64,000 nucleotides of DNA from an uncultured bacterium (GCA_963977015.1 CAXBMO010000007.1:96001-160000), one strand, 5' to 3'. Shown: positions 7,203 to 36,717, counted from the first letter of the stretch. Made by a program: numbers and translations. The notes: a model not told the origin generated them from the sequence alone.

Positions 7203-8730
7203 GCAACTTCCAGCGATCATCGTCCTCCTGCCGCTGTTCACCGCTATGCTGGTGTTACTCCTCGGCATGTGGCGACATAGTTTTGCCCTCCCCATCACCG
7301 TTATCGGAATTGGGCTGACGCTTTTCGCAACCGTCAAACAATTGATGGAAGTGATCTTGGCCGACGGACATAAGATCACCTACTATCTGGGAGGTTGGGA
7401 TAACCCGATTCCGGTCGGGATTCATCTGGCTGTCGATCCAATCAACGCGATCGTTTTGATTGTGATCGCCTTGGTTGGGTTTATCACGACCGTCTACTCC
7501 TTGGCGCGAGTCCCTGAAGAAACGCCGGGGAAAATCGCTCAATTCTACTGTCTCTTCCTCTTGCTGATTTGCGGGTTGCTCGGCATGACGATTTCCGCTG
7601 ATGCATTCAACGTCTTTGTGCTTCTTGAGGTTTCGTCGCTCACGAGTTACGCCCTGATTGCAATGGGCAATTCCAAGCGCGCCGGAGTGGCGTCGTTCAA
7701 CTACGTTATTATGGGGACGATTGGTGCCTCATTCTACCTGCTGGGAGTGGGGTATCTCTTGGCGAGAACCGGCTCACTCAACATGGCCGATATCCAGAAC
7801 ATTATCAGTTCGCAGGACCTTTATAACTCTCCCGCCATCCATGTGGCATTTATCTTCATCGTCCTCGGCCTGATGATTAAGATGGCCTTCTTTCCCCTCC
7901 ATGGCTGGCTGCCCAATGCCTACAGTTACAGTCCGTCGTCCAGTTCTTGTATCTTGGCGCCTCTGGTCACCAAGGTTTCCATTTATGTCACCATCCGCAT
8001 GATCCTGACGGTGTTTGGCCCCATCTATGTCTTTGAAAATCTGGGTTGGAGTAACATCATGGTTTGGCTGGCGGTTGTTTCGATTGTCGCGGGCTCTATA
8101 CTCGCGCTTTCGCAGACCGAATTAAAACGCATGTTCTGCTATCTCATCGTCGCGGAGGTCGGATATATGGTCGGTGGCATTTGGATCGCCAATCACTGGG
8201 GAATGGTTGGAGCCATTTATCACATCGCGAGTGATGCTCTGATGACCCTCTGCCTGTTTCTGGCGGCCAGTCTGATCTGGCGACAAACCCGAAGCCACAA
8301 GATTTCCAGCCTCAGTGAGTTGACCAAGAAAATGCCGTTCACGATGGCGGGCTTTGTCGTAGCAGCTTTGGCGATGATTGGTGTTCCACCAACATGCGGA
8401 TTCTTTAGCAAGTGGTTTCTAATTCGCGGCGGTATCGAATCTGGTCATTGGGAATATGTCGTAGCACTCCTGTTCTCGAGCCTGGTCAATGCCATTCTCT
8501 TCTTTCGGGTCATTGAAATCTGCTTTTTTGGAAAGAAACCGGCAGAAGGTCATGGCCATCACGAGGCCGATCACAGCAACCAATCAACCTGGAACGAAGC
8601 ACCACCCGCCGCCCTCTTCGCATTGCTGTCCACCGCCTCCCTTCTCATCCTTCTTGGAGTCTTCAACGACCCAATTGTGCAACTGATCAAAAAATCGCTC
8701 ATTGATCTTCCGATCATTGGAATTGGCTAA
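7195..8730 (+). CDS. mnhD: Mrp/Mnh antiporter subunit D (copy 1)
   Basis: DAFNVFVLLEVSS, IKMAFFPLHGWLPNAY, GVPPTCGFFSKW. Confidence 0.92.
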   Translation: MVEQLPAIIVLLPLFTAMLVLLLGMWRHSFALPITVIGIGLTLFATVKQLMEVILADGHKITYYLGGWDNPIPVGIHLAVDPINAIVLIVIALVGFITTVYSLARVPEETPGKIAQFYCLFLLLICGLLGMTISADAFNVFVLLEVSSLTSYALIAMGNSKRAGVASFNYVIMGTIGASFYLLGVGYLLARTGSLNMADIQNIISSQDLYNSPAIHVAFIFIVLGLMIKMAFFPLHGWLPNAYSYSPSSSSCILAPLVTKVSIYVTIRMILTVFGPIYVFENLGWSNIMVWLAVVSIVAGSILALSQTELKRMFCYLIVAEVGYMVGGIWIANHWGMVGAIYHIASDALMTLCLFLAASLIWRQTRSHKISSLSELTKKMPFTMAGFVVAALAMIGVPPTCGFFSKWFLIRGGIESGHWEYVVALLFSSLVNAILFFRVIEICFFGKKPAEGHGHHEADHSNQSTWNEAPPAALFALLSTASLLILLGVFNDPIVQLIKKSLIDLPIIGIG

Positions 8731-8731
8731 G

Positions 8732-10222
8732 ATGACTCCTGAAACCGTCAACAGTCTTATTCCGATCCTGGCCTGCGCCGTATCGCTTCTCGCAGTGATT
8801 CCCATCACTTTGGCGGGGAAATCTCCGAATCTCCGCGAAGGTTTCACGTTCGCTGCGGCCATTGCCAAACTGCTGTTGGTCGCATCCATGATCCCCACCA
8901 TTTTGGAGGGAAAAGTCATCGTCGCGACACTGTTCCACATCCTCCCGACCGTGCCTCTGCAGTTCCGGGTGGATGGGATGGGCCTGCTCTTTGCGCTCGT
9001 TGCGTCCTTTCTGTGGATCCCGACGTCACTGTATGGAATTGGCTATATGCGGGGCCTCAAGGAACATTCTCAAACCCGCTTTTTCGCCTTTTTCGCCATT
9101 TCGCTGAGCGCGACGTTGGGAGTCGCCTTCGCCGGGAATCTTCTGACCCTCTACGTGTTTTACGAGATGCTTTCGCTCTCGACCTTTCCCCTGGTCACCC
9201 ATCACCAGGATAAGGAGGCCAGAACCGGCGGACGAACCTACCTGGCCCACCTTCTCACGACGTCCGTTGGGTTTGCCCTTCCCGCGTTAATCTTCTGCTT
9301 CGCAAAATCCGGCGGCGATCTGACGTTTTCGCTGGACGGATTCCTGGCCGGCCACGTCACGGAGAAAGAGTCACTGGTCGTCCTCTTGCTGCTCACCTTC
9401 GGCTTCGCCAAGAACGGATTGATGCCGTTTCACTCCTGGCTGCCGGGCGCCATGGTTGCCCCAACCCCAGTCTCCGCGCTCTTGCACGCTGTTGCGGTGG
9501 TCAAGGTGGGAGTCTTTTGCGTCCTCAGGATTTTCACCGGCGTCTTTGGACTGGAAATGCTCAAGAAGCTGGATATTGCCATCGTCATTTCCTGGATCGC
9601 AGCGTTCACGGTCATTGTGTCGTCGCTAGTCGCTTTAACTCAAGACAACCTGAAGCGACGCCTCGCGTTTTCCACCATCGGCCAACTGGCTTACATCATT
9701 TTGGGAATTTCGCTTCTCAGCCCCGCAGGCACCACGGGAAGCATGCTGCACATTGTCATGCACGCGTTTGGCAAGATTACCTTGTTCTTCTGCGCTGGAG
9801 CCATCTTTGTTGCGACGGGCAAGAAATACATCAGCCAGATGTCTGGCATTGGGCGGCAGATGCCCTTCACGATGGCCGCCTTTTTTATCGGTTCGCTCAG
9901 TGTGACCGGACTGCCTCCAACCGGCGGCTTTCTCAGCAAGTTTTATCTCGTTCTTGGAACCGCTCAAGCAGACCAGATCCCACTCCTGATCGTCTTTTTG
10001 ATCAGCACCATCCTTAACGCTGCCTATTTTCTCCCCATTGCGGTGAAGGCGTTCTTTCCCCCGGATGATCTGCAACCGTTCTCGCGAAAGCAGATCAAGG
10101 AAGCCCCAAAGGCGTGCGTATTGCCGATTCTGCTGACAGCAACCGCCACCTTGTATTTCTTCTTTGATCCTTCGCTGCCATTGGCTCTGATTGAACAATT
10201 TTTCGTCGCGGCAAAGCCATGA
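8732..10222 (+). CDS. Mrp/Mnh antiporter subunit D-family (copy 2)
   Basis: LYVFYEML, KNGLMPFHSWLP, LKRRLAFSTIGQL, GLPPTGGFLSK. Confidence 0.9.
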   Translation: MTPETVNSLIPILACAVSLLAVIPITLAGKSPNLREGFTFAAAIAKLLLVASMIPTILEGKVIVATLFHILPTVPLQFRVDGMGLLFALVASFLWIPTSLYGIGYMRGLKEHSQTRFFAFFAISLSATLGVAFAGNLLTLYVFYEMLSLSTFPLVTHHQDKEARTGGRTYLAHLLTTSVGFALPALIFCFAKSGGDLTFSLDGFLAGHVTEKESLVVLLLLTFGFAKNGLMPFHSWLPGAMVAPTPVSALLHAVAVVKVGVFCVLRIFTGVFGLEMLKKLDIAIVISWIAAFTVIVSSLVALTQDNLKRRLAFSTIGQLAYIILGISLLSPAGTTGSMLHIVMHAFGKITLFFCAGAIFVATGKKYISQMSGIGRQMPFTMAAFFIGSLSVTGLPPTGGFLSKFYLVLGTAQADQIPLLIVFLISTILNAAYFLPIAVKAFFPPDDLQPFSRKQIKEAPKACVLPILLTATATLYFFFDPSLPLALIEQFFVAAKP

Positions 10223-10494
10223 GTAAAAAGCAAAACCAAGTTGGCTGGATAGAACGCCCAAGCGTAAGACGCGGGCTGCTTATTGCACTGTGGCTGATAA
10301 GTGCGGCGACGGTTCTGGCCAAATTCGCCGCCAAGTCCTCTCACCCGCCCAGTGACTCGGAAAAGTCGGCTTATTTCTATGCAATTTTGGGGTTTTCGGC
10401 CTGCGCGTTGATGATCTTTCTTTCCAAAGGCCTTGGGCTTTGGCTCAAGGTAAAACCTGACTATTACGAGCGCGGCTCATCCTCCAATGATTGA
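10219..10494 (+). CDS. Small two-TM protein inside the mrp operon
   Basis: Overlaps both neighbours; two hydrophobic segments; C-terminal PDYYE. Confidence 0.8.
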   Translation: MSKKQNQVGWIERPSVRRGLLIALWLISAATVLAKFAAKSSHPPSDSEKSAYFYAILGFSACALMIFLSKGLGLWLKVKPDYYERGSSSND

Positions 10495-12256
10495 TCTGCA
10501 CAATATCCCACCTGGGCTCATTTTGATTTTCGGGGCCTTGCTCGTCCCATTCCTTCCGGGAAAACTGAAGAATATCTGTACGATCATTCTCCCGTTGATT
10601 GCGTTCTCCCTCATCGCAAAACTTCCACTCCACGTTCCCACTTGCAGTTGGAACCTCTTCCCTGGATTGCCTGCCGTGGAGTGGCTCCGTGTCGACAAAC
10701 TCAGTAAAGCCTTTGGCTATATTTTCACCATCAACGCAGTCGCCGCGTTCATTTTCGCATTCTATCTTCGGAAATCGACGCAGCATGTTGCTGCTCTTAT
10801 TTATATTGGCGGTGCGCTTGGGACCGTCTTTGCCGGTGACCTGGTTTCTGCCTATGTGAACTGGGAAATCATGGCGATTGCCTCAACGTTCGTGATTCTC
10901 GCGAACCCAACGGCCAAAGCCAAGGGTGCGGCTCTTCGTTATGCCTATCTTCATATCTTTGGCGGACTTCTGTTTCTCGCCGGATTGATTCTTACGATCG
11001 GCTCAACGGGAAGCATCGCGTTTGATGGATTCAAGCCGCAGGAGGCGGACCTGGGGAGCTGGCTGATCCTGGCGGGTTTTCTCGTCAATGCAGCAGCGCC
11101 ACCGCTTCATGCCTGGCTCTCTGATGCCTATCCCGAGGCCAGTATATCCGGAGGCGTAATTCTCAGTGCTTACACCACCAAAACAGCAGTCTACACCCTT
11201 CTCCGCGGATACCCAGGTTGGGAAATCCTCGTTTGGATCGGCTGCATCATGACGGTTTACGGCGTGATTTACGCGCTTCTGGAAAATGATATCCGCCGGG
11301 TCTGGGCTTACTCCATTATCAGCCAGGTTGGTTTCATGGTTTGCGCTGCTGGAATTGGCACTCATGAAGCCATCAGTGGCGCAACGGCCCACGCCTTTTG
11401 CCACATTATTTACAAGTCCCTTCTCTGGATGTCTGCCGGTGCCATCATCTACCGCGTTGGTAAGAGTAAATACACCGAACTTGGCGGCCTCTACAAGAGT
11501 ATGCCCTGGACAGCGACCTGGGCGATTATCGGTGCCCTGGCGATGTCCGCGGTTCCCCTGACCAGTGGTTTTACCAGTAAATCGATTATCATTCACGCAA
11601 CCGAACACGAAGCGCATCTTCTCTGGGCTTGGTATGTTCTCGAAATCGCTTCCGCCGGATCGTTTTTTTACGCAGGCATTCGCTTTCCCTATTACATCAT
11701 CTTCGGCAAAGACGCCGGTCATCGCCCCAAGGAAGCCCCCTTCTCCATGCACCTTGCCATGGGCGTTCTCGCGTTCCTTTGCATCTTTCTGGGTTGCTAC
11801 CCAAAACCTCTTTACGACATCCTCCCGCACTCGATCGGCGAATACTCCGCTTACGGTCACGTTCTTTCTCAATTGCAACTCTTGGCCTTCGCCGCTCTCG
11901 CGTTTTTCGTGTTGAAGCCATTTCTCAAACAAACGGATACCATCTCTCTCGATACGGATTGGTTTTGGAGAAAGGGCGGACGCGGCTTTTATTGGCTGAT
12001 GGACAGGACTCTCAACGGCTTTAACAAGTTTGCTCACATCGCCTTCGTTGGAGTTTTGATTCCGCTCATTGATCGACTCGTAAATCTACTTCCTTCCTCA
12101 CTTGCATCCGGGCTGTTGGGGGCCGTTGTGGATCTCGAGGGGGATCCCAAAACTCGGCGTGCAGCGCTCGAAAAAATGACTCGCAAGGGAGCTCTACCAA
12201 TTGGAGTCACGGCCTGTTTCGGTGTCTTTGCCTTGGCGTTGCTCCTCCTCTTTTAG
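10487..12256 (+). CDS. Mrp/Mnh antiporter subunit D-family (copy 3, long C-terminus)
   Basis: WEIMAIAS, PLHAWLSDAYPEAS, SAYTTKTAVY, DTDWFWR. Confidence 0.9.
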   Translation: MIDLHNIPPGLILIFGALLVPFLPGKLKNICTIILPLIAFSLIAKLPLHVPTCSWNLFPGLPAVEWLRVDKLSKAFGYIFTINAVAAFIFAFYLRKSTQHVAALIYIGGALGTVFAGDLVSAYVNWEIMAIASTFVILANPTAKAKGAALRYAYLHIFGGLLFLAGLILTIGSTGSIAFDGFKPQEADLGSWLILAGFLVNAAAPPLHAWLSDAYPEASISGGVILSAYTTKTAVYTLLRGYPGWEILVWIGCIMTVYGVIYALLENDIRRVWAYSIISQVGFMVCAAGIGTHEAISGATAHAFCHIIYKSLLWMSAGAIIYRVGKSKYTELGGLYKSMPWTATWAIIGALAMSAVPLTSGFTSKSIIIHATEHEAHLLWAWYVLEIASAGSFFYAGIRFPYYIIFGKDAGHRPKEAPFSMHLAMGVLAFLCIFLGCYPKPLYDILPHSIGEYSAYGHVLSQLQLLAFAALAFFVLKPFLKQTDTISLDTDWFWRKGGRGFYWLMDRTLNGFNKFAHIAFVGVLIPLIDRLVNLLPSSLASGLLGAVVDLEGDPKTRRAALEKMTRKGALPIGVTACFGVFALALLLLF

Positions 12257-32020: not shown

Positions 32021-33262
32021 CTAGGGCTTTCCCAGGCAATAGAGCCACTCTTGCCGCGTCTCGCCCTCATACTTCGCGACACGATGATAGATTCGGCTAT
32101 CGCAGATGGAAGGCGTGGCAAAGGCCTCGTCTCCCAATTGGTTGGTCGCCACCAACTCGAACTTTGCAGGTGATGCACGAATCACAAAGGTCTGGCCACG
32201 CTCGTTCGTCGCGAAAATCAGATCGTTGGCGAGAACCGGTGATGCGCTTACCGGGCCACCCACTCTTTCTTTCCACATTTCGCGTCCGTCGGTCGCCCGC
32301 CAACACATGGCAATCCCCCCATCGTTGAGGCCGTAGACGTGCCCATCATGGGCAAGCAGCGATTGTTCATAGCATTTCTCCTTATTTTTCCAAGCCACGC
32401 GCCGGGATCCATCCGCCAAGACCGCGATCGTTTCCTTGGTCGGGAAACCTCCACTGGCGTAAACCTGAGTCGCGGTCCAAACCATGGTTCCGGCCGTTGC
32501 CGAGGTCCCCCCGTCAACCTGCCAAACAACCTGCCCGGTTATCGGATCATAGCTGGTGATCTTTTCCGCACCACTCATCAGTAATTGTTCCTGATCAGCG
32601 ACCGTTGCCACAACCGGCGACGAATAGCTGGTTGCCTGATCCCGAGGTGACCGCCAAACCCCCAATCCATTTTCCACGGAGAACGCGGCGAGAAACCCGC
32701 CTTCTGCAAACTCCGATGCCACAATCACCTTGTCGCCGTGGACCAGCGGCGAAGCCGCATATCCGAACTGATAACGCGGTCGAAAACTTCCCGCCTGCTT
32801 TTGCCATCGCTTCTTTCCGTCCATTCCCAGCGAAGTGAGATAAATCATTCCATCGTTGTAAAACACCACAAAAATGCTGGATCCATCAGTCGCCGCAGTC
32901 GGAGAAGCATGGGTGTTTTTCTTGTGGATTTTGGGCAACTCGAGGACGCGATGGACCACGGTATTCCACTTCTCCTCACCAGTGTTGCGATCAAAACACA
33001 CCACCGATTGGGTCTGGTTCTCCTCATCTGCAGTCGTGAGGATCACCGAATCTCCAATGATCGTGGGGCTGGAGTGACCTCGTCCCGGCACCTTGGCCTT
33101 CCAAATGACGTTTTTATCGTCGCTCCAACTCGTCGGTGGGTTCTGCCCGGATGCGGCAATTCCATTTCCGTAGGGACCTCTCCAGGCCGGCCAATTTTCA
33201 GCTTGAGCGGAAGACAGGCCCCAAAGAAGACCCAATGTGATCCAAAGGTGAGGTTTCGTCAT
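32021..33262 (-). CDS. PQQ-like beta-propeller protein, secreted
   Basis: NWPAWRGP, GRGHSSP, SYSSP, FATPSI; signal peptide. Confidence 0.9.
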   Translation of the reverse strand: MTKPHLWITLGLLWGLSSAQAENWPAWRGPYGNGIAASGQNPPTSWSDDKNVIWKAKVPGRGHSSPTIIGDSVILTTADEENQTQSVVCFDRNTGEEKWNTVVHRVLELPKIHKKNTHASPTAATDGSSIFVVFYNDGMIYLTSLGMDGKKRWQKQAGSFRPRYQFGYAASPLVHGDKVIVASEFAEGGFLAAFSVENGLGVWRSPRDQATSYSSPVVATVADQEQLLMSGAEKITSYDPITGQVVWQVDGGTSATAGTMVWTATQVYASGGFPTKETIAVLADGSRRVAWKNKEKCYEQSLLAHDGHVYGLNDGGIAMCWRATDGREMWKERVGGPVSASPVLANDLIFATNERGQTFVIRASPAKFELVATNQLGDEAFATPSICDSRIYHRVAKYEGETRQEWLYCLGKP

Positions 33263-34191
33263 GAGATATGGGAAGTCCGTTTCCCATACAATTCGTCACA
33301 CCGTTCGTCCAGCGGGCAGCGTTGACAAAGAATCGGAATGGAAGTCTGCCGAATTTCCATGCCCGGTTCATACTCTGTCACCATCAACTCGGCGACATAG
33401 CGGACAAACTCTTCGCTCTTGGGAAACGTCGCCTCGAGATCTTTTGACGGGAGATGGCGGATTTCAGGCTCAGGCTGCACGTAGACCAACACTCCGCGAA
33501 CTGGTCGCCCCGTGCGACGCTGAAGCAGCCAAGCGTAACAGGCGAGCTGATGGAGGTCGGATGGAAACTCGGCCGAAGTCTTACACTTGAAGTCAAAAAG
33601 GATGAACTCCTCCGCAACCGGGTCAAACCACAGCCCGTCGTAGTTTCCGGTAATCTGAATCTGCAAGCCGTTGATCTCGACAGACTCCTTCACAACGCCT
33701 TCCGGGGGCAAAAAGAGACGCGTTCTCGCGGGGAGTTCTCTTGCTCCGATGATCAATTCTGCGCACATTCTTGCCAATTCACCGATTCCCTGGCTCATCG
33801 CCTCGATTTGCTCTTGAGGGTTGTTTCCAAGGTTGCTCGCGAACTCCTGAAGGGCCGGACTCATATAGGTCTGCGCAAAAATCCGCCAAAGCTCCGTATG
33901 CAAATCATTGGGATCACTCCACGACGCCTCAACCACTCGCTTGAGTTCCGGATTTGGAGGGCGAATCCCCGCCCCTTCAACATCCGCCAAGTCTTCCAAA
34001 ATGCGGTTGACGATCTGGCCATGAAAGAGGTTCCCATTGACGACATGCCCCCCAGCGGGAGCCACCTTGACATCGCCTCTCGGAAGCCTGGCCTTATGAA
34101 ATGCGAGCCTCGGGCACAAGCTGGCGAATCGGAGAAGACCGCCGGACATCGAGACGACCTTTCGTCCATCCATCTCCGAATCAGTTGCCAT
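33259..34191 (-). CDS. PD-(D/E)XK nuclease, RecB/AddB/Cas4-like, with predicted Fe-S cluster
   Basis: N-terminal CPR, GNLFH, GNYDGL...FDFK, QLACY, C-terminal CQRCPLDERC. Confidence 0.85.
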   Translation of the reverse strand: MATDSEMDGRKVVSMSGGLLRFASLCPRLAFHKARLPRGDVKVAPAGGHVVNGNLFHGQIVNRILEDLADVEGAGIRPPNPELKRVVEASWSDPNDLHTELWRIFAQTYMSPALQEFASNLGNNPQEQIEAMSQGIGELARMCAELIIGARELPARTRLFLPPEGVVKESVEINGLQIQITGNYDGLWFDPVAEEFILFDFKCKTSAEFPSDLHQLACYAWLLQRRTGRPVRGVLVYVQPEPEIRHLPSKDLEATFPKSEEFVRYVAELMVTEYEPGMEIRQTSIPILCQRCPLDERCDELYGKRTSHIS

Positions 34192-36121
34192 CGCTCGTTA
34201 GCGAAAACGTTTGATTATCCCCCACTTCAACGATGCGCTCCGGAGCACTGCGCAACGTTGCCAAGAGCGTCTCATCACTGACGTGGAGATGCGGAGCACG
34301 TTGCTTTAAATGCTGGGCGATCGATGCAAAATCCAGAAAGTAAGGCTCCTGATTAAGGATATCGACGACGAATTCCAACAAGAGATCGGGATCGGAGTTC
34401 AGCTCGATCTGGGCAAGTAAACGATTCCCGAGCCGGGGATGAAAGGCCTCGCGCAGGAAGCGCTGATAATCCTCAATCGAAAGAATCTGCAACTGGTCAT
34501 CAGCGCCCAAAAAAGTCCAATCGCCAGCTTCAATCGCGTTCTTGGTCGTCTCGAGAGCTTCAAATTCGGCATGCCATCGATAGGGAAATTCAAGATAGAC
34601 TCCGCCGGCTTGCTCAAAATCCTTCTTCGCGTTCTTCCTGGCCTCGATCGGATTCCGTTCGTCTCGCAAAAACACGATGAGATCGAGTTCGCCTGCTCGC
34701 TTGGCTTTTCCTGTCAGAGTTTTAAACAAGCTTCCCAACTGCGAGCCGTAGTTTCGCCGATCGCAGGAAATCGTTAAATTCGCGATCCGATTTCCCGGTG
34801 TCGTGATCGACGTTTCAAGGCTTCCTCCTTTGTCCTCGCCCGCGCTTTTGGTAAGGACTTCCCTTCGAACTTGAAATCCCCCCGGCAATCTGGGCCGCGA
34901 ATCGAGATACTCACCCAACCCGCTAATCAGCAGTTCGGGACGGCAGGCGGTTTTTTCAGCCGCCGCGAGGAGTCGGCTCAGCTCCCGCGAATAGAAGTCA
35001 TAAATCTTCTCCAACGGATTCCCTTCCTTCACGTCAGGCCCGATGTGGCGCCCGGCTTCCATCAACACTTTGCGCGGCACATTGATCTCAGCTTCCAAGT
35101 CTGCGAGAGCGGCATCAATTCGCAATTCGCGATGGGGATCCTTGTCAGCTCCCGCCCACTCCATGCGAACCCGAATCAGATCCCGGGCCTGAGACTTGTT
35201 GCAGCCATCAATCTGAAACCGGTTGGCAAAAAGTCGCTGCCAAACGTGCTCATCCATTTGGTGCGCAGCCTTATCGGCGAAATCCGGTCGGGTAAAGCAA
35301 ATGGGAAGGGCCTGGCGAACCTCATTGACGATATTCGTAAACATCGTGCCGAACTCACGCTGCTGTTCCGGTGTCGAGAGGTTTTCCAATTGGTCAAAAC
35401 AGAGCACGAGTGGCCAATCGGCTTCACCAAAAGCTTTACCGAACGCGACCAACAACTCGAAGGCACGGACCTCAGCCGCTTCAGCGGATTCCTGAGCTTC
35501 CATCGCTGGAATATTCAGGACCTCGCACTCATGACGCTCGAGATACAATCCGGAAAGAAACCTCACAACCTCGGTCTTCACCGAGGGATCCCAAGAGCGA
35601 AAGAGAACTTCGACAAAGTCTCGCTCCACCGGGCTGAAAAAATCCTCCTGCAACAAGTTGGTTTTGACGATCGCCGCTTCTTTCGCCCGTCTTGCGTTCT
35701 TCAGGTACTCAGCCAGGCCAAGTGCACCGATCTTCACGCCTCTGCGTTCCAGAATTCGACGCAGCAAGGTCGCTAACTGCGAATCCCCGCCTTCGTTCAC
35801 CAACCGGGTGCGCTGGAGATCGGCAACCAGGGTATCCAGCAGCTTCCGATTCATCCGCTTGGGTTCCCTGATCGGGTAGACATAGGCACAGGCAAAATCC
35901 TGGGGAGACTTCAGCACCCTCCGAATCATGTGGGTTTTACCACTTCCCGTTCCGCCAAACACCGTCGCGCTCAAATTCACATTGGGGCTAACCTGCTCAA
36001 TCAATCGCGCCAACCCGTCAAAACACTCCTGGTTGATCGCCGATAAATCCGGAGTATCCGCGGCCCATGGATTGCCGACAATCACATCGGAAAACGGTGC
36101 TGGAACTTGAGGTTTGGTCAT
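34181..36121 (-). CDS. P-loop AAA+-like ATPase with C-terminal winged-helix-like domain
   Basis: Walker A GGTGSGKT, Walker B LVLCFDQLE, PRKVL sensor-2-like motif. Confidence 0.85.
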   Translation of the reverse strand: MTKPQVPAPFSDVIVGNPWAADTPDLSAINQECFDGLARLIEQVSPNVNLSATVFGGTGSGKTHMIRRVLKSPQDFACAYVYPIREPKRMNRKLLDTLVADLQRTRLVNEGGDSQLATLLRRILERRGVKIGALGLAEYLKNARRAKEAAIVKTNLLQEDFFSPVERDFVEVLFRSWDPSVKTEVVRFLSGLYLERHECEVLNIPAMEAQESAEAAEVRAFELLVAFGKAFGEADWPLVLCFDQLENLSTPEQQREFGTMFTNIVNEVRQALPICFTRPDFADKAAHQMDEHVWQRLFANRFQIDGCNKSQARDLIRVRMEWAGADKDPHRELRIDAALADLEAEINVPRKVLMEAGRHIGPDVKEGNPLEKIYDFYSRELSRLLAAAEKTACRPELLISGLGEYLDSRPRLPGGFQVRREVLTKSAGEDKGGSLETSITTPGNRIANLTISCDRRNYGSQLGSLFKTLTGKAKRAGELDLIVFLRDERNPIEARKNAKKDFEQAGGVYLEFPYRWHAEFEALETTKNAIEAGDWTFLGADDQLQILSIEDYQRFLREAFHPRLGNRLLAQIELNSDPDLLLEFVVDILNQEPYFLDFASIAQHLKQRAPHLHVSDETLLATLRSAPERIVEVGDNQTFSLTSDGN

Positions 36122-36147
36122 GGTTTAAAAAATGAGTCGGCGGGCTT

Positions 36148-36717
36148 TTAGGTTCTCCATAAAATACTGAAATAGAGCTGCCCATCCTGAAACAGGGAGT
36201 CTTTTTGCTTGTCCGCGCTGAAGTCGCGCGGATCTCCTCCCACAAATTGAAACGGAGGATTCTTCTCCGAACTCAACTCCTTGAGAAACTGATCGAACCG
36301 CTTTCGCTCCCACTTTAATTCGCGGCGAATCTTGAAAATGTTCACCGCTCCGCTCGGATGATGGGGAAGAAACTTGCGATACGCCTTTTTCAACGATGCC
36401 AACTCGCTCCCGCCGGCAGCAAGCGGTTTCGTCATTCCTCGCGCCGCACGCAAATAGTCGGGATGGCGAAGTCTCGGAGCAACCTGCTGCCCCTTAGGCG
36501 GTTCGACAACGTCCAATCCTTGGGACCAAAGATCGTATGCAAATTCTTTCACGTTCTGTGACATCTTGGACGTAACAAAACGCTTTCCCAAATGTGCTTT
36601 CATTCCTTCCCTCAAGCTTTTTCGGCACTTCTGCCCGGCTTGTGCATAGGTGAGACTGCCATTGCGGGTATTTTTCCGCAACATTTCTAGAAACTCCTTC
36701 CGCAACTCGTCATTCAT
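36148..36717 (-). CDS. Basic hypothetical protein, probable winged-helix DNA-binding protein
   Basis: Lys/Arg-rich; VNIFKIRRELKWERKRFDQFLKEL helix-turn-helix-like segment followed by beta-hairpin-like segments. Confidence 0.7.
   Translation of the reverse strand: MNDELRKEFLEMLRKNTRNGSLTYAQAGQKCRKSLREGMKAHLGKRFVTSKMSQNVKEFAYDLWSQGLDVVEPPKGQQVAPRLRHPDYLRAARGMTKPLAAGGSELASLKKAYRKFLPHHPSGAVNIFKIRRELKWERKRFDQFLKELSSEKNPPFQFVGGDPRDFSADKQKDSLFQDGQLYFSILWRT

Follow-up and report, generated by a model that had tools for sequence, protein, structure and literature searches.

A putative motor-less variant of Orc/Cdc6 ATPase and nuclease systems in the genome of an uncultured bacterium

INTRODUCTION

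What do three closely packed genes for a small winged-helix (WH) protein (P0001), an AAA+ ATPase (P0002), and a nuclease (P0003) do together in the chromosome of an uncultured bacterium? They lie on the minus strand of a 64,000-nucleotide stretch of DNA (GCA_963977015.1, CAXBMO010000007.1:96001-160000), which we call the window and whose positions are counted from its first letter. A first-pass annotation, made from the sequence alone, took them for an undescribed operon for defense or DNA processing. On balance, we favor reading the locus as a motor-less variant of the systems that couple an Orc/Cdc6 ATPase with a restriction-fold nuclease and that are predicted to act against invading DNA.

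The wider family has been described computationally in a study published in 2024 in Nucleic Acids Research (PMC10853773), so that "undescribed" was too strong a word. In the part of that text available to us, its members are "mobile gene neighborhoods" combining an Orc/CDC6 ATPase, an inactive restriction endonuclease (REase), an active REase, a HerA/FtsK component, and a winged helix-turn-helix (wHTH). The inactive REase is stated always to separate the AAA+ module from the C-terminal wHTH, the active REase comes from one of two families, one HerA/FtsK set carries FtsK-alpha, and a protein with two to four wHTH domains or a 3'-5' exonuclease is present in a subset of operons. The proposal is that the ATPase localizes the restriction machinery and that invading DNA is intercepted by the pump, in what the authors call "HerA/FtsK capture" anti-invader systems; a second paper, likewise available in part (PMC12839542), repeats this view.

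RESULTS AND DISCUSSION

Three genes conserved as a unit within one genus

The three genes, all on the minus strand, encode the small WH protein (36148..36717; an open reading frame [ORF] of 189 amino acids [aa]), the ATPase (34181..36121; 646 aa), and the nuclease (33259..34191; 310 aa). A gap of 26 bp (36122-36147) separates the first two, and the last two overlap by 11 bp (34181-34191). The ORF listing agrees in all of this with the first-pass annotation, and the motifs quoted there (GGTGSGKT, LCFDQLE, D...DFK, QxxxY, and the 1+3 cysteines) are all present in the translations.

The homologs co-occur, a point that the first-pass annotation had marked for checking: all three genes are found in the same order in three genomes of the same genus (G000, G001, and G002), while in G003 the ATPase and nuclease genes lie on a 5.8-kb contig which ends inside the ATPase gene, before the small gene. 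In our set of 41 related genomes, the three occur together in this form nowhere outside the genus, and the other nuclease matches are weak and lie inside the nuclease-FtsK genes of G008 and G028. One TGA codon was flagged in the nuclease match of G001, yet the ORF there is an uninterrupted 308 aa. Synonymous sites are saturated (proportion of synonymous differences [pS], 0.70 to 0.88), nonsynonymous divergence (dN) is 0.18 to 0.22 for the ATPase and 0.17 to 0.37 for the nuclease, and its ratio to synonymous divergence (dN/dS) for these two genes is 0.07 to 0.18 where dS could be estimated; the small protein of G001 was left out of the divergence comparison. Since orthologs stand in the same order in two further genomes of the genus and dN is far below dS, we take the three genes to be real, and they form a conserved unit.

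A Cas4/AddB-type nuclease with a predicted Fe-S site

P0003 carries the nuclease motifs D185 (in NYDG), D200-F-K202, and Q215xxxY219, and its cysteines follow a 1+3 pattern (Cys26 and C289xxC292x5C298); all of these residues are kept in the two orthologs. The Pfam family PDDEXK_1 (PF12705) matches with an E value of 1.5e-9 over profile positions 13-247 of 247, and the Cas4 models of PADLOC match at 3.2e-7, no other PADLOC model matching the nuclease. TIGR00372 also matches (1.8e-6), with a score of 27.9 bits that is below its cut-off of 65 bits; the NCBIfam search of P0001, P0002, and P0003 gave sub-threshold matches only, and single-protein searches of PDB sequences with P0001 and P0003 returned nothing useful. 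Judged by its sequence, P0003 is a Cas4/AddB-type PD-(D/E)XK nuclease with a predicted 4Fe-4S site formed by C26, C289, C292, and C298, and the earlier designation as a Cas4/RecB-like nuclease with 1+3 cysteines is borne out by PDDEXK_1, the Cas4 models, and the motifs.

P0003 shares with the Cas4/AddB Fe-S nucleases (PF12705, TIGR00372) a full-length PDDEXK_1 domain and the D...D-x-K, QxxxY, and C...CxxCx5C motifs, but it differs from them in being operonic with an Orc/Cdc6 ATPase. It is also unlike CRISPR Cas4, since it falls below the TIGR00372 cut-off and is accompanied by no array in the 64 kb and by no cas gene or helicase in the annotated flanks. A precedent for a solo Cas4-family accessory nuclease in non-CRISPR defense is ACE1, a Cas4-family enzyme which, according to the portion of PMC12094033 at hand, works with cyanobacterial long-A Argonautes. 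The likeness is one of description, and the partner of ACE1 is a prokaryotic Argonaute rather than an Orc/Cdc6 ATPase.

A joint alignment of six stand-alone and three FtsK-fused nucleases, the latter from relatives of the locus considered below, has E164, G182, D185, K202, D212, Q215, and Y219 invariant in both groups. The four cysteines are found only in the stand-alone proteins, whereas the fused chains continue at this place into FtsK-alpha; P0003 thus differs from the aligned fusions by its Cas4/AddB-type 1+3 cysteine cluster. Because it has a C-terminal cysteine module of its own, we regard P0003 as a complete enzyme and not as a truncated FtsK fusion.

An ATPase with an Orc/Cdc6-like fold

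In P0002, the Walker A motif GGTGSGKT occupies residues 56-63 and LCFDQLE residues 240-246. AAA_16 matches with an E value of 1.8e-6, which is under the Pfam cut-off, AAA_22 is likewise sub-threshold, and the stretches matched by AAA_16, AAA_22, and nSTAND1 lie within residues 36-327. Searches of PDB sequences with the single ATPase and with the ATPase profile found no relation beyond the P-loop. An AlphaFold2 model built from an alignment of 91 family members (predicted local distance difference test [pLDDT], 90.3; predicted template modeling score [pTM], 0.87) has as its top Foldseek rows Cdc6 (1fnn, 1.8e-4), ORC/Cdc6 (7tjj), RdrA (8hr8), Orc1/Cdc6 (2qby), and BrxC (9zdx), with E values from 1.8e-4 to 1e-3. 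Since these proteins rank first, the model assigns P0002 to the AAA+ ATPases that form the Orc/Cdc6 clade; the first-pass annotation as an AAA+ ATPase is in this way narrowed to a clade by the AAA_16 match and by Foldseek. Across the 91 family members, G59 and G61 of Walker A are kept in all, K62 in 90, and D243 of Walker B in all 91, and three arginines are also conserved (R296 in 87/91, R319 and R350 in 88/91 each).

According to the secondary structure of the model, the AAA+ core and its helical lid span residues ~31-407 (34901..36031, minus strand), strands 2 and 3 of the core being separated by a long helical insert and the lid coming after the core. An extra alpha/beta domain follows at residues ~416-546 (34484..34876, minus strand), where three strands, a helix, a strand, a helix, a strand, and a helix succeed one another; D487 is conserved in 81/91 members, R489 in 82/91, and G507 in 83/91, the last as part of a conserved G506-G507 pair. 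The protein appears to end in a winged-helix-like module of two helices and a beta-hairpin (residues ~598-641; 34199..34330, minus strand), which fits the C-terminal wHTH that the available text of PMC10853773 states for Orc/CDC6-family proteins. A hidden Markov model (HMM) of the alpha/beta domain matches the ATPases of loci in which relatives are associated with FtsK (L009, 1e-14; L021, 3e-6; L023, 2e-6; L024, 9e-5; L025, 2e-4). By its modeled fold and position, the segment ~416-546 may correspond to the "inactive REase" insert of the family. A Foldseek row for the restriction enzyme EcoT38I (E value, 3.9e-3) belongs to the model of the whole ATPase and is not assignable to residues 416-546.

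A tandem winged-helix partner and its paralog

P0001 is basic (pI 10.1; 37 K/R versus 21 D/E), and its model (pLDDT, 91.6) folds into two winged-helix domains at residues ~1-90 and 97-189, the best Foldseek rows, all weak, being tandem-WH proteins. By its model, P0001 is thus a tandem winged-helix protein, in keeping with the small, basic, HTH-like protein proposed before; its sequence has no family match in Pfam, NCBIfam, or the PDB. A GD motif near the C terminus (G161-D162) is invariant in an alignment of 20 sequences. Public protein collections start P0001 at Met39 (151 aa), but the 189-aa start is more likely because the alignment with the orthologs takes in residues 1-38 as well.

The small proteins that precede the FtsK-type relatives were compared with the window family by hhalign, with marginal results (E value, 0.61, and 0.045 with a broader profile). 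A link is provided by a 191-aa paralog on contig C1 of the same genome, which can be aligned with P0001 over its full length (23% identity; E value, 4e-12) and whose N-terminal part matches the window-type HMM (1.4e-18) while its C-terminal part matches the FtsK-type HMM (1.5e-25). Because the paralog matches both HMMs, P0001 is homologous to the small proteins of the FtsK-type relatives, and a small WH protein is thus a regular partner of the family ATPase. In our survey it emerges as a universal partner, beyond the "subset" of operons mentioned in the available text of PMC10853773.

The paralog belongs to a second system of the family in the same genome (L100, G000:C1:566500-586499, positions 7762-12023, minus strand), where a 506-aa classical AAA protein (PF00004, 2e-31) is followed by the 191-aa small protein and by a 702-aa family ATPase, with genes for an M28 peptidase and a phosphoglucomutase after them. 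This arrangement is kept in G002 (L101), while a short contig of G003 (L097) covers no more of it than the gene for the small protein and the beginning of the ATPase gene. By local HMMs, neither a nuclease nor FtsK was found in L100.

Relatives of the ATPase and their motors

Of 1.84 billion cluster representatives, 627 match a profile of the ATPase at E<=1e-3, and 59 of these reach E<=1e-30. Among the matches listed, all nine that are longer than 950 aa end in a pumping ATPase, which is FtsK_SpoIIIE preceded by FtsK-alpha in eight and of the HerA/TrwB type in one. The family is sparse, with members in 8/401 sampled genomes of the phylum and 78/401 of the order, and its spread over the families of the order is uneven (f1, 21/118; f2, 0/119; f4, 9/38; f5, 47/118).

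Using local HMMs and Pfam, we surveyed 28 loci outside the genus, in 13 of which FtsK is encoded in the same gene as the ATPase or in an adjacent one, usually with the nuclease in between. Six of these have the small protein, the ATPase, and a nuclease-FtsKalpha-FtsK protein as three genes (L009, L023, L026, L068, L069, L071), and seven have the small protein and a single ATPase-(nuclease)-FtsK fusion, with the nuclease detected in L021, L022, and L024 and not detected in L025, L070, L073, and L079. The nuclease HMM matches 9 of the 13, six of these matches being independent of the seed alignment, and Pfam PDDEXK_1 confirms the nuclease in L009, L021, L022, and L024. In PADLOC, the FtsK part of the relatives matches the C terminus of SspH (1e-43 to 8e-64) and mad8. 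In a further locus (L072), the protein encoded after the ATPase gives a weak nuclease signal and contains a RuvB-like AAA+ module; nine hold an ATPase subtype of 666-850 aa for which the HMMs found no nuclease or FtsK (L074-L076, L078, L080-L083, L087), four a short ORF with the ATPase C-domain only (L077, L084-L086), and one is cut by the contig end (L027). In relatives, the ATPase is thus recurrently encoded together with a homologous PD-(D/E)XK nuclease and a translocase, either in one chain or in neighboring genes; the translocase is FtsK or, in one case, RuvB-like. The FtsK link that the first-pass annotation had suggested was right, the window locus being the version without FtsK.

A tree of 49 ATPase N-domains recovers the window clade as monophyletic (100/100) and groups it with P0014-P0016 (100/100) and then with P0017-P0020 and P0024 (98/90); the resulting 12-row set is sister to a 15-row clade which holds eight FtsK fusions (96/87). 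A Desulfomonile tiedjei protein is among the nearest outside ATPases (P0014-P0020), and the sole hint of gene context for P0014 is that an ENA contig of 12220 bases is on record both for it and for P0176, a relative of the small protein.

The motor of the family appears to be exchangeable, judging from the encoded domains: FtsK is usual, a RuvB-like AAA+ occurs once, a classical AAA protein stands in the paralogous locus, and the window has none. In the RuvB-like case (L072, G696:C72, 9343-13309), a 711-aa ATPase stands before a 603-aa protein that matches the nuclease HMM weakly (8e-5) and has RuvB_N, AAA, and RuvB_C where relatives have FtsK. In L021 (7172-10805), the FtsK motor of the fusion is divided between two ORFs that overlap (1054 aa and 158 aa), which could be a frameshift or an assembly error. 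A gene for a 2OG-Fe(II) oxygenase (PF13532, 2.6e-36; 13190-13816 in L026, genome G028) overlaps the end of a nuclease-FtsK gene by 4 bp and is possibly an extra component of that locus. The 666-850-aa subtype is common in f5 and is preceded in three mapped loci by an unannotated protein of ~285-305 aa; in L082 it is flanked by a sulfatase and a hydrolase gene.

Distant relatives on cyanobacterial plasmids sit in defense-type contexts. One is an 816-aa ATPase (L037, NZ_CP143850.1, 1791-11039) whose neighbors are a DNA methyltransferase, a RelE/ParE toxin-antitoxin pair, a DEAD/DEAH helicase, and a GIY-YIG nuclease, and another is an exonuclease-ATPase fusion (L038, NZ_CP040289.1, 309017-315212) beside DUF262 and DUF1524 genes that are split by an ISL3 transposase.

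The C-domain-only ORFs (L077, 4187-4903; L084, 6364-6999; L085, 3332-4201; L086, 9800-10177) come from other genera of the same family, encode 125-289 aa, and match P0002 with 27-30% identity and E values of 1e-13 to 7e-20; that of L077 lies directly upstream of a homolog (31% identity) of the PQQ-type beta-propeller protein encoded next to the window locus. From their sequences, these ORFs could be debris or else a domain family that stands alone. With its motor missing, the window locus too might be a functionless relic that has been decaying since the loss of FtsK. We deem this very improbable, given the three intact reading frames in three genomes, the preserved Walker A, Walker B, and catalytic nuclease residues, a dN far below dS, and a nuclease that ends in its own cysteine module and is not a cut-down FtsK fusion.

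Comparison with known systems

The motor-less reading rests on a comparison with the HerA/FtsK capture systems as laid out in the available text of PMC10853773. The window locus shares with them the ATPase family, an alpha/beta domain between lid and C-terminal WH in P0002, an active PD-(D/E)XK nuclease homologous to the FtsK-fused forms, and a multi-wHTH small protein, so that four of the five components are matched, the inactive REase as a candidate domain suggested by the model, and HerA/FtsK is missing, the next gene encoding a PQQ propeller. Because of this missing component, we call the locus a motor-less variant and do not file it as a member. It is further unlike the capture systems, as the same text presents them, in that the small protein is not fast-evolving (44-60% identity) and tracks the nuclease, and in that the setting is fixed and non-mobile. 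As far as PMC10853773 describes the capture systems in the part at hand, the motor-less state and the Fe-S nuclease go beyond them and mark a new variant.

Other known systems resemble single parts of the locus. Orc1/Cdc6 initiators, BrxC of BREX, and RdrA of RADAR are the best structural matches of the P0002 model, but the other BREX or RADAR genes are absent at the locus and the set of C-terminal domains in P0002 differs. The FtsK-type motor of the relatives resembles those of DndH/SspH and of mad8 in MADS; the window locus, unlike Dnd, Ssp, and MADS, has neither the motor nor their other components.

Genomic setting and inheritance

Immediately downstream of the nuclease gene lies a co-oriented gene for a PQQ-type beta-propeller protein (32021-33262, minus strand), the translation of which begins with a signal-peptide-like N terminus. 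Its start overlaps the nuclease stop by 4 bp (33259-33262), and the tight packing therefore covers four genes and not three. The position is kept in the genus, with a 4-bp overlap in L006 and an 18-bp gap in L007, and the gene is probably cotranscribed with those for P0001, P0002, and P0003; among relatives outside the genus, no case of a PQQ gene within the system was found. A sulfatase gene stands on the same strand 110 bp upstream of the locus. The flanks were annotated over 27.7-43 kb of the window and encode a response regulator, an AsnC-type regulator, MFS and TauE transporters, FKBP, the PQQ-type beta-propeller, the sulfatase, FAD synthetase, and an FG-GAP/ASPIC protein. No helicase, methyltransferase, integrase, or cas gene is found in this interval, and there is no CRISPR-like array in the 64 kb, the only candidate being a single 37-bp tandem repeat; the absence of a CRISPR array and of cas1/cas2, helicase, and methyltransferase genes had been noted in the first-pass annotation as well.

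Promoter and terminator scans at the locus gave no signal above shuffled sequences. DNA of the locus was found in marine or estuary metagenome runs and in one organism's run, and no RNA run is listed among the sequencing runs that contain it. A cellular FtsK gene lies ~64 kb from the locus on the same contig. Elsewhere in the genome, a 1302-aa ORF (L033, G000:C24:34000-53999, positions 8065-11973, minus strand) matches Pfam only by one FtsK_SpoIIIE domain (residues 761-917); it adjoins an EF-G gene, and no link to the window locus was found.

Within the genus, the ATPase is 70-75% identical and the adjacent PQQ protein 69-73%, while identity is lower for the faster-evolving nuclease (58-60%) and small protein (56%). 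Since the ATPase diverges about as much as the neighboring PQQ gene, the locus looks vertically inherited, with long residence and not turnover as the pattern that the sequences suggest. A word-based homolog search found four close relatives of the ATPase, a scan of genome contigs three loci, all of the same genus, and a scan of metagenomes one locus. In viral contigs there were only matches the size of the Walker A region (residues 31-70), which were not counted as family members, and P0025 had no match on plasmids by tblastn.

Several of our observations weigh against a defense system of the capture type. The defining part is absent, as no FtsK or HerA domain was matched in P0001, P0002, or P0003. 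For the putative inactive REase, a comparison of the ATPase C-domain with the active nuclease by hhalign was non-significant (E values, 0.49 and 0.59), and a PDB profile search with this domain returned no match. P0002 matches 0 families of PADLOC-DB v2 (2023) at E<=1, and P0001 likewise matches 0 in PADLOC, which agrees with the first-pass annotation in that no named system was recognized. Tblastn searches of plasmids and phages gave no match for any of the three window-type proteins, and phages likewise gave none for P0018, an ATPase of the sister clade. The window locus lies outside any defense island, among housekeeping and secreted-protein genes; its GC content is that of its surroundings, there is no tRNA gene in the 64-kb window that would point to a mobile element, and the repeats around it are short two- or three-copy families at chance level, none of them notably flanking the locus. 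Together with the apparently vertical inheritance, this setting goes against defense-island enrichment and, within the genus, against a patchy distribution, both of which the first-pass annotation had marked for checking. Finally, our literature search retrieved no experiment on any family member and only the two computational papers on this architecture.

These observations bear most directly on the main rival explanation, that of a DNA-maintenance module domesticated from a former defense or mobile set which lost its pump and now serves end processing, recombination, or aberrant replication intermediates. The housekeeping context, the position beside the PQQ gene that is fixed in all genomes of the genus, the divergence equal to that of the neighboring gene under purifying selection, and the lack of any mobile-element signature are what such a module would leave behind. 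Fe-S PD-(D/E)XK nucleases such as AddB and Dna2 are end-processing enzymes, and P0003 is of their type. Confinement to one genus among the 41 relatives would be odd for core repair, however, all informative ATPase relatives are found in variable, conflict-type architectures, and the same genome holds a second, divergent pair of small protein and ATPase, a multiplicity typical of conflict systems. We therefore consider domestication unlikely, if clearly worth keeping in view.

The weak similarities of family members to AAA_22 and TniB-type domains in Pfam, and the word "mobile" used for these neighborhoods in the available text of PMC10853773, would also suit an immobile remnant of a transposon-like cassette with a TnsC/TniB-like ATPase and a TnsA-like nuclease. 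At the locus, however, no transposase, integrase, terminal repeat, or target duplication was found, the position is stable in the genus, and no copy turned up on plasmids or phages; such an origin of the present locus is hardly probable.

Proposed mechanism and significance

For the motor-less variant that we favor, we infer a role in defense which would operate as follows. The tandem-WH protein and the ATPase would bind DNA, the latter by means of its own C-terminal WH and the extra alpha/beta domain, and the ATPase would assemble on DNA in an ATP-dependent manner as other Orc/Cdc6 proteins do. The complex of the two may then recruit or license the nuclease, which would degrade linear or replicating foreign DNA. 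Since there is no pump and the enzyme is of the Fe-S Cas4/AddB/Dna2 type, it most likely works from DNA ends or flaps and not at internal sites. No modification gene accompanies the system, and self would therefore be told from non-self by the structure of the DNA or by a sequence read by the WH domains.

The lack of a modification gene for self-protection in the annotated flanks can be read in another way, namely, that the nuclease is a toxin which the ATPase and the WH protein restrain and which turns on the host's DNA when an invader is sensed. An abortive mode of this kind is common among Orc/Cdc6 and STAND-type NTPases with nuclease effectors, relatives of the ATPase show weak similarity to Avs2, and for the small WH protein a role as repressor or antitoxin is conceivable. 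In most relatives, though, nuclease and DNA translocase go together, which points to captured DNA as the target and not to indiscriminate self-destruction, and no sequence feature singles out the abortive mode; an abortive-infection or toxin module is accordingly a rather improbable reading, less so than a remnant or a relic.

Beyond the motor-less variant, we tentatively raise the possibility, which we hold with some doubt, that the window clade is a functionally distinct type of system and more than a degraded one, in which an Orc/Cdc6 ATPase and its tandem-WH partner directly license an Fe-S, end-dependent, Cas4-like exonuclease without pump or modification and which is chromosomally fixed in a marine genus of the Verrucomicrobiales. 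If this were true, it would amount to a translocase-independent coupling of an origin-recognition-type ATPase to DNA degradation, and the role of the system would be either defense or a lineage-specific maintenance of DNA that arose by domestication of a conflict system.

The capture systems of Orc/Cdc6 ATPase, nuclease, and FtsK have so far been a matter of bioinformatic prediction only, despite 627 representatives of the ATPase. With three genes in 3.5 kb and without the 600-aa motor fusion, the window locus is the smallest natural version and for this reason a convenient entry point, suited to asking whether the ATPase family controls the nuclease and what the pump adds.

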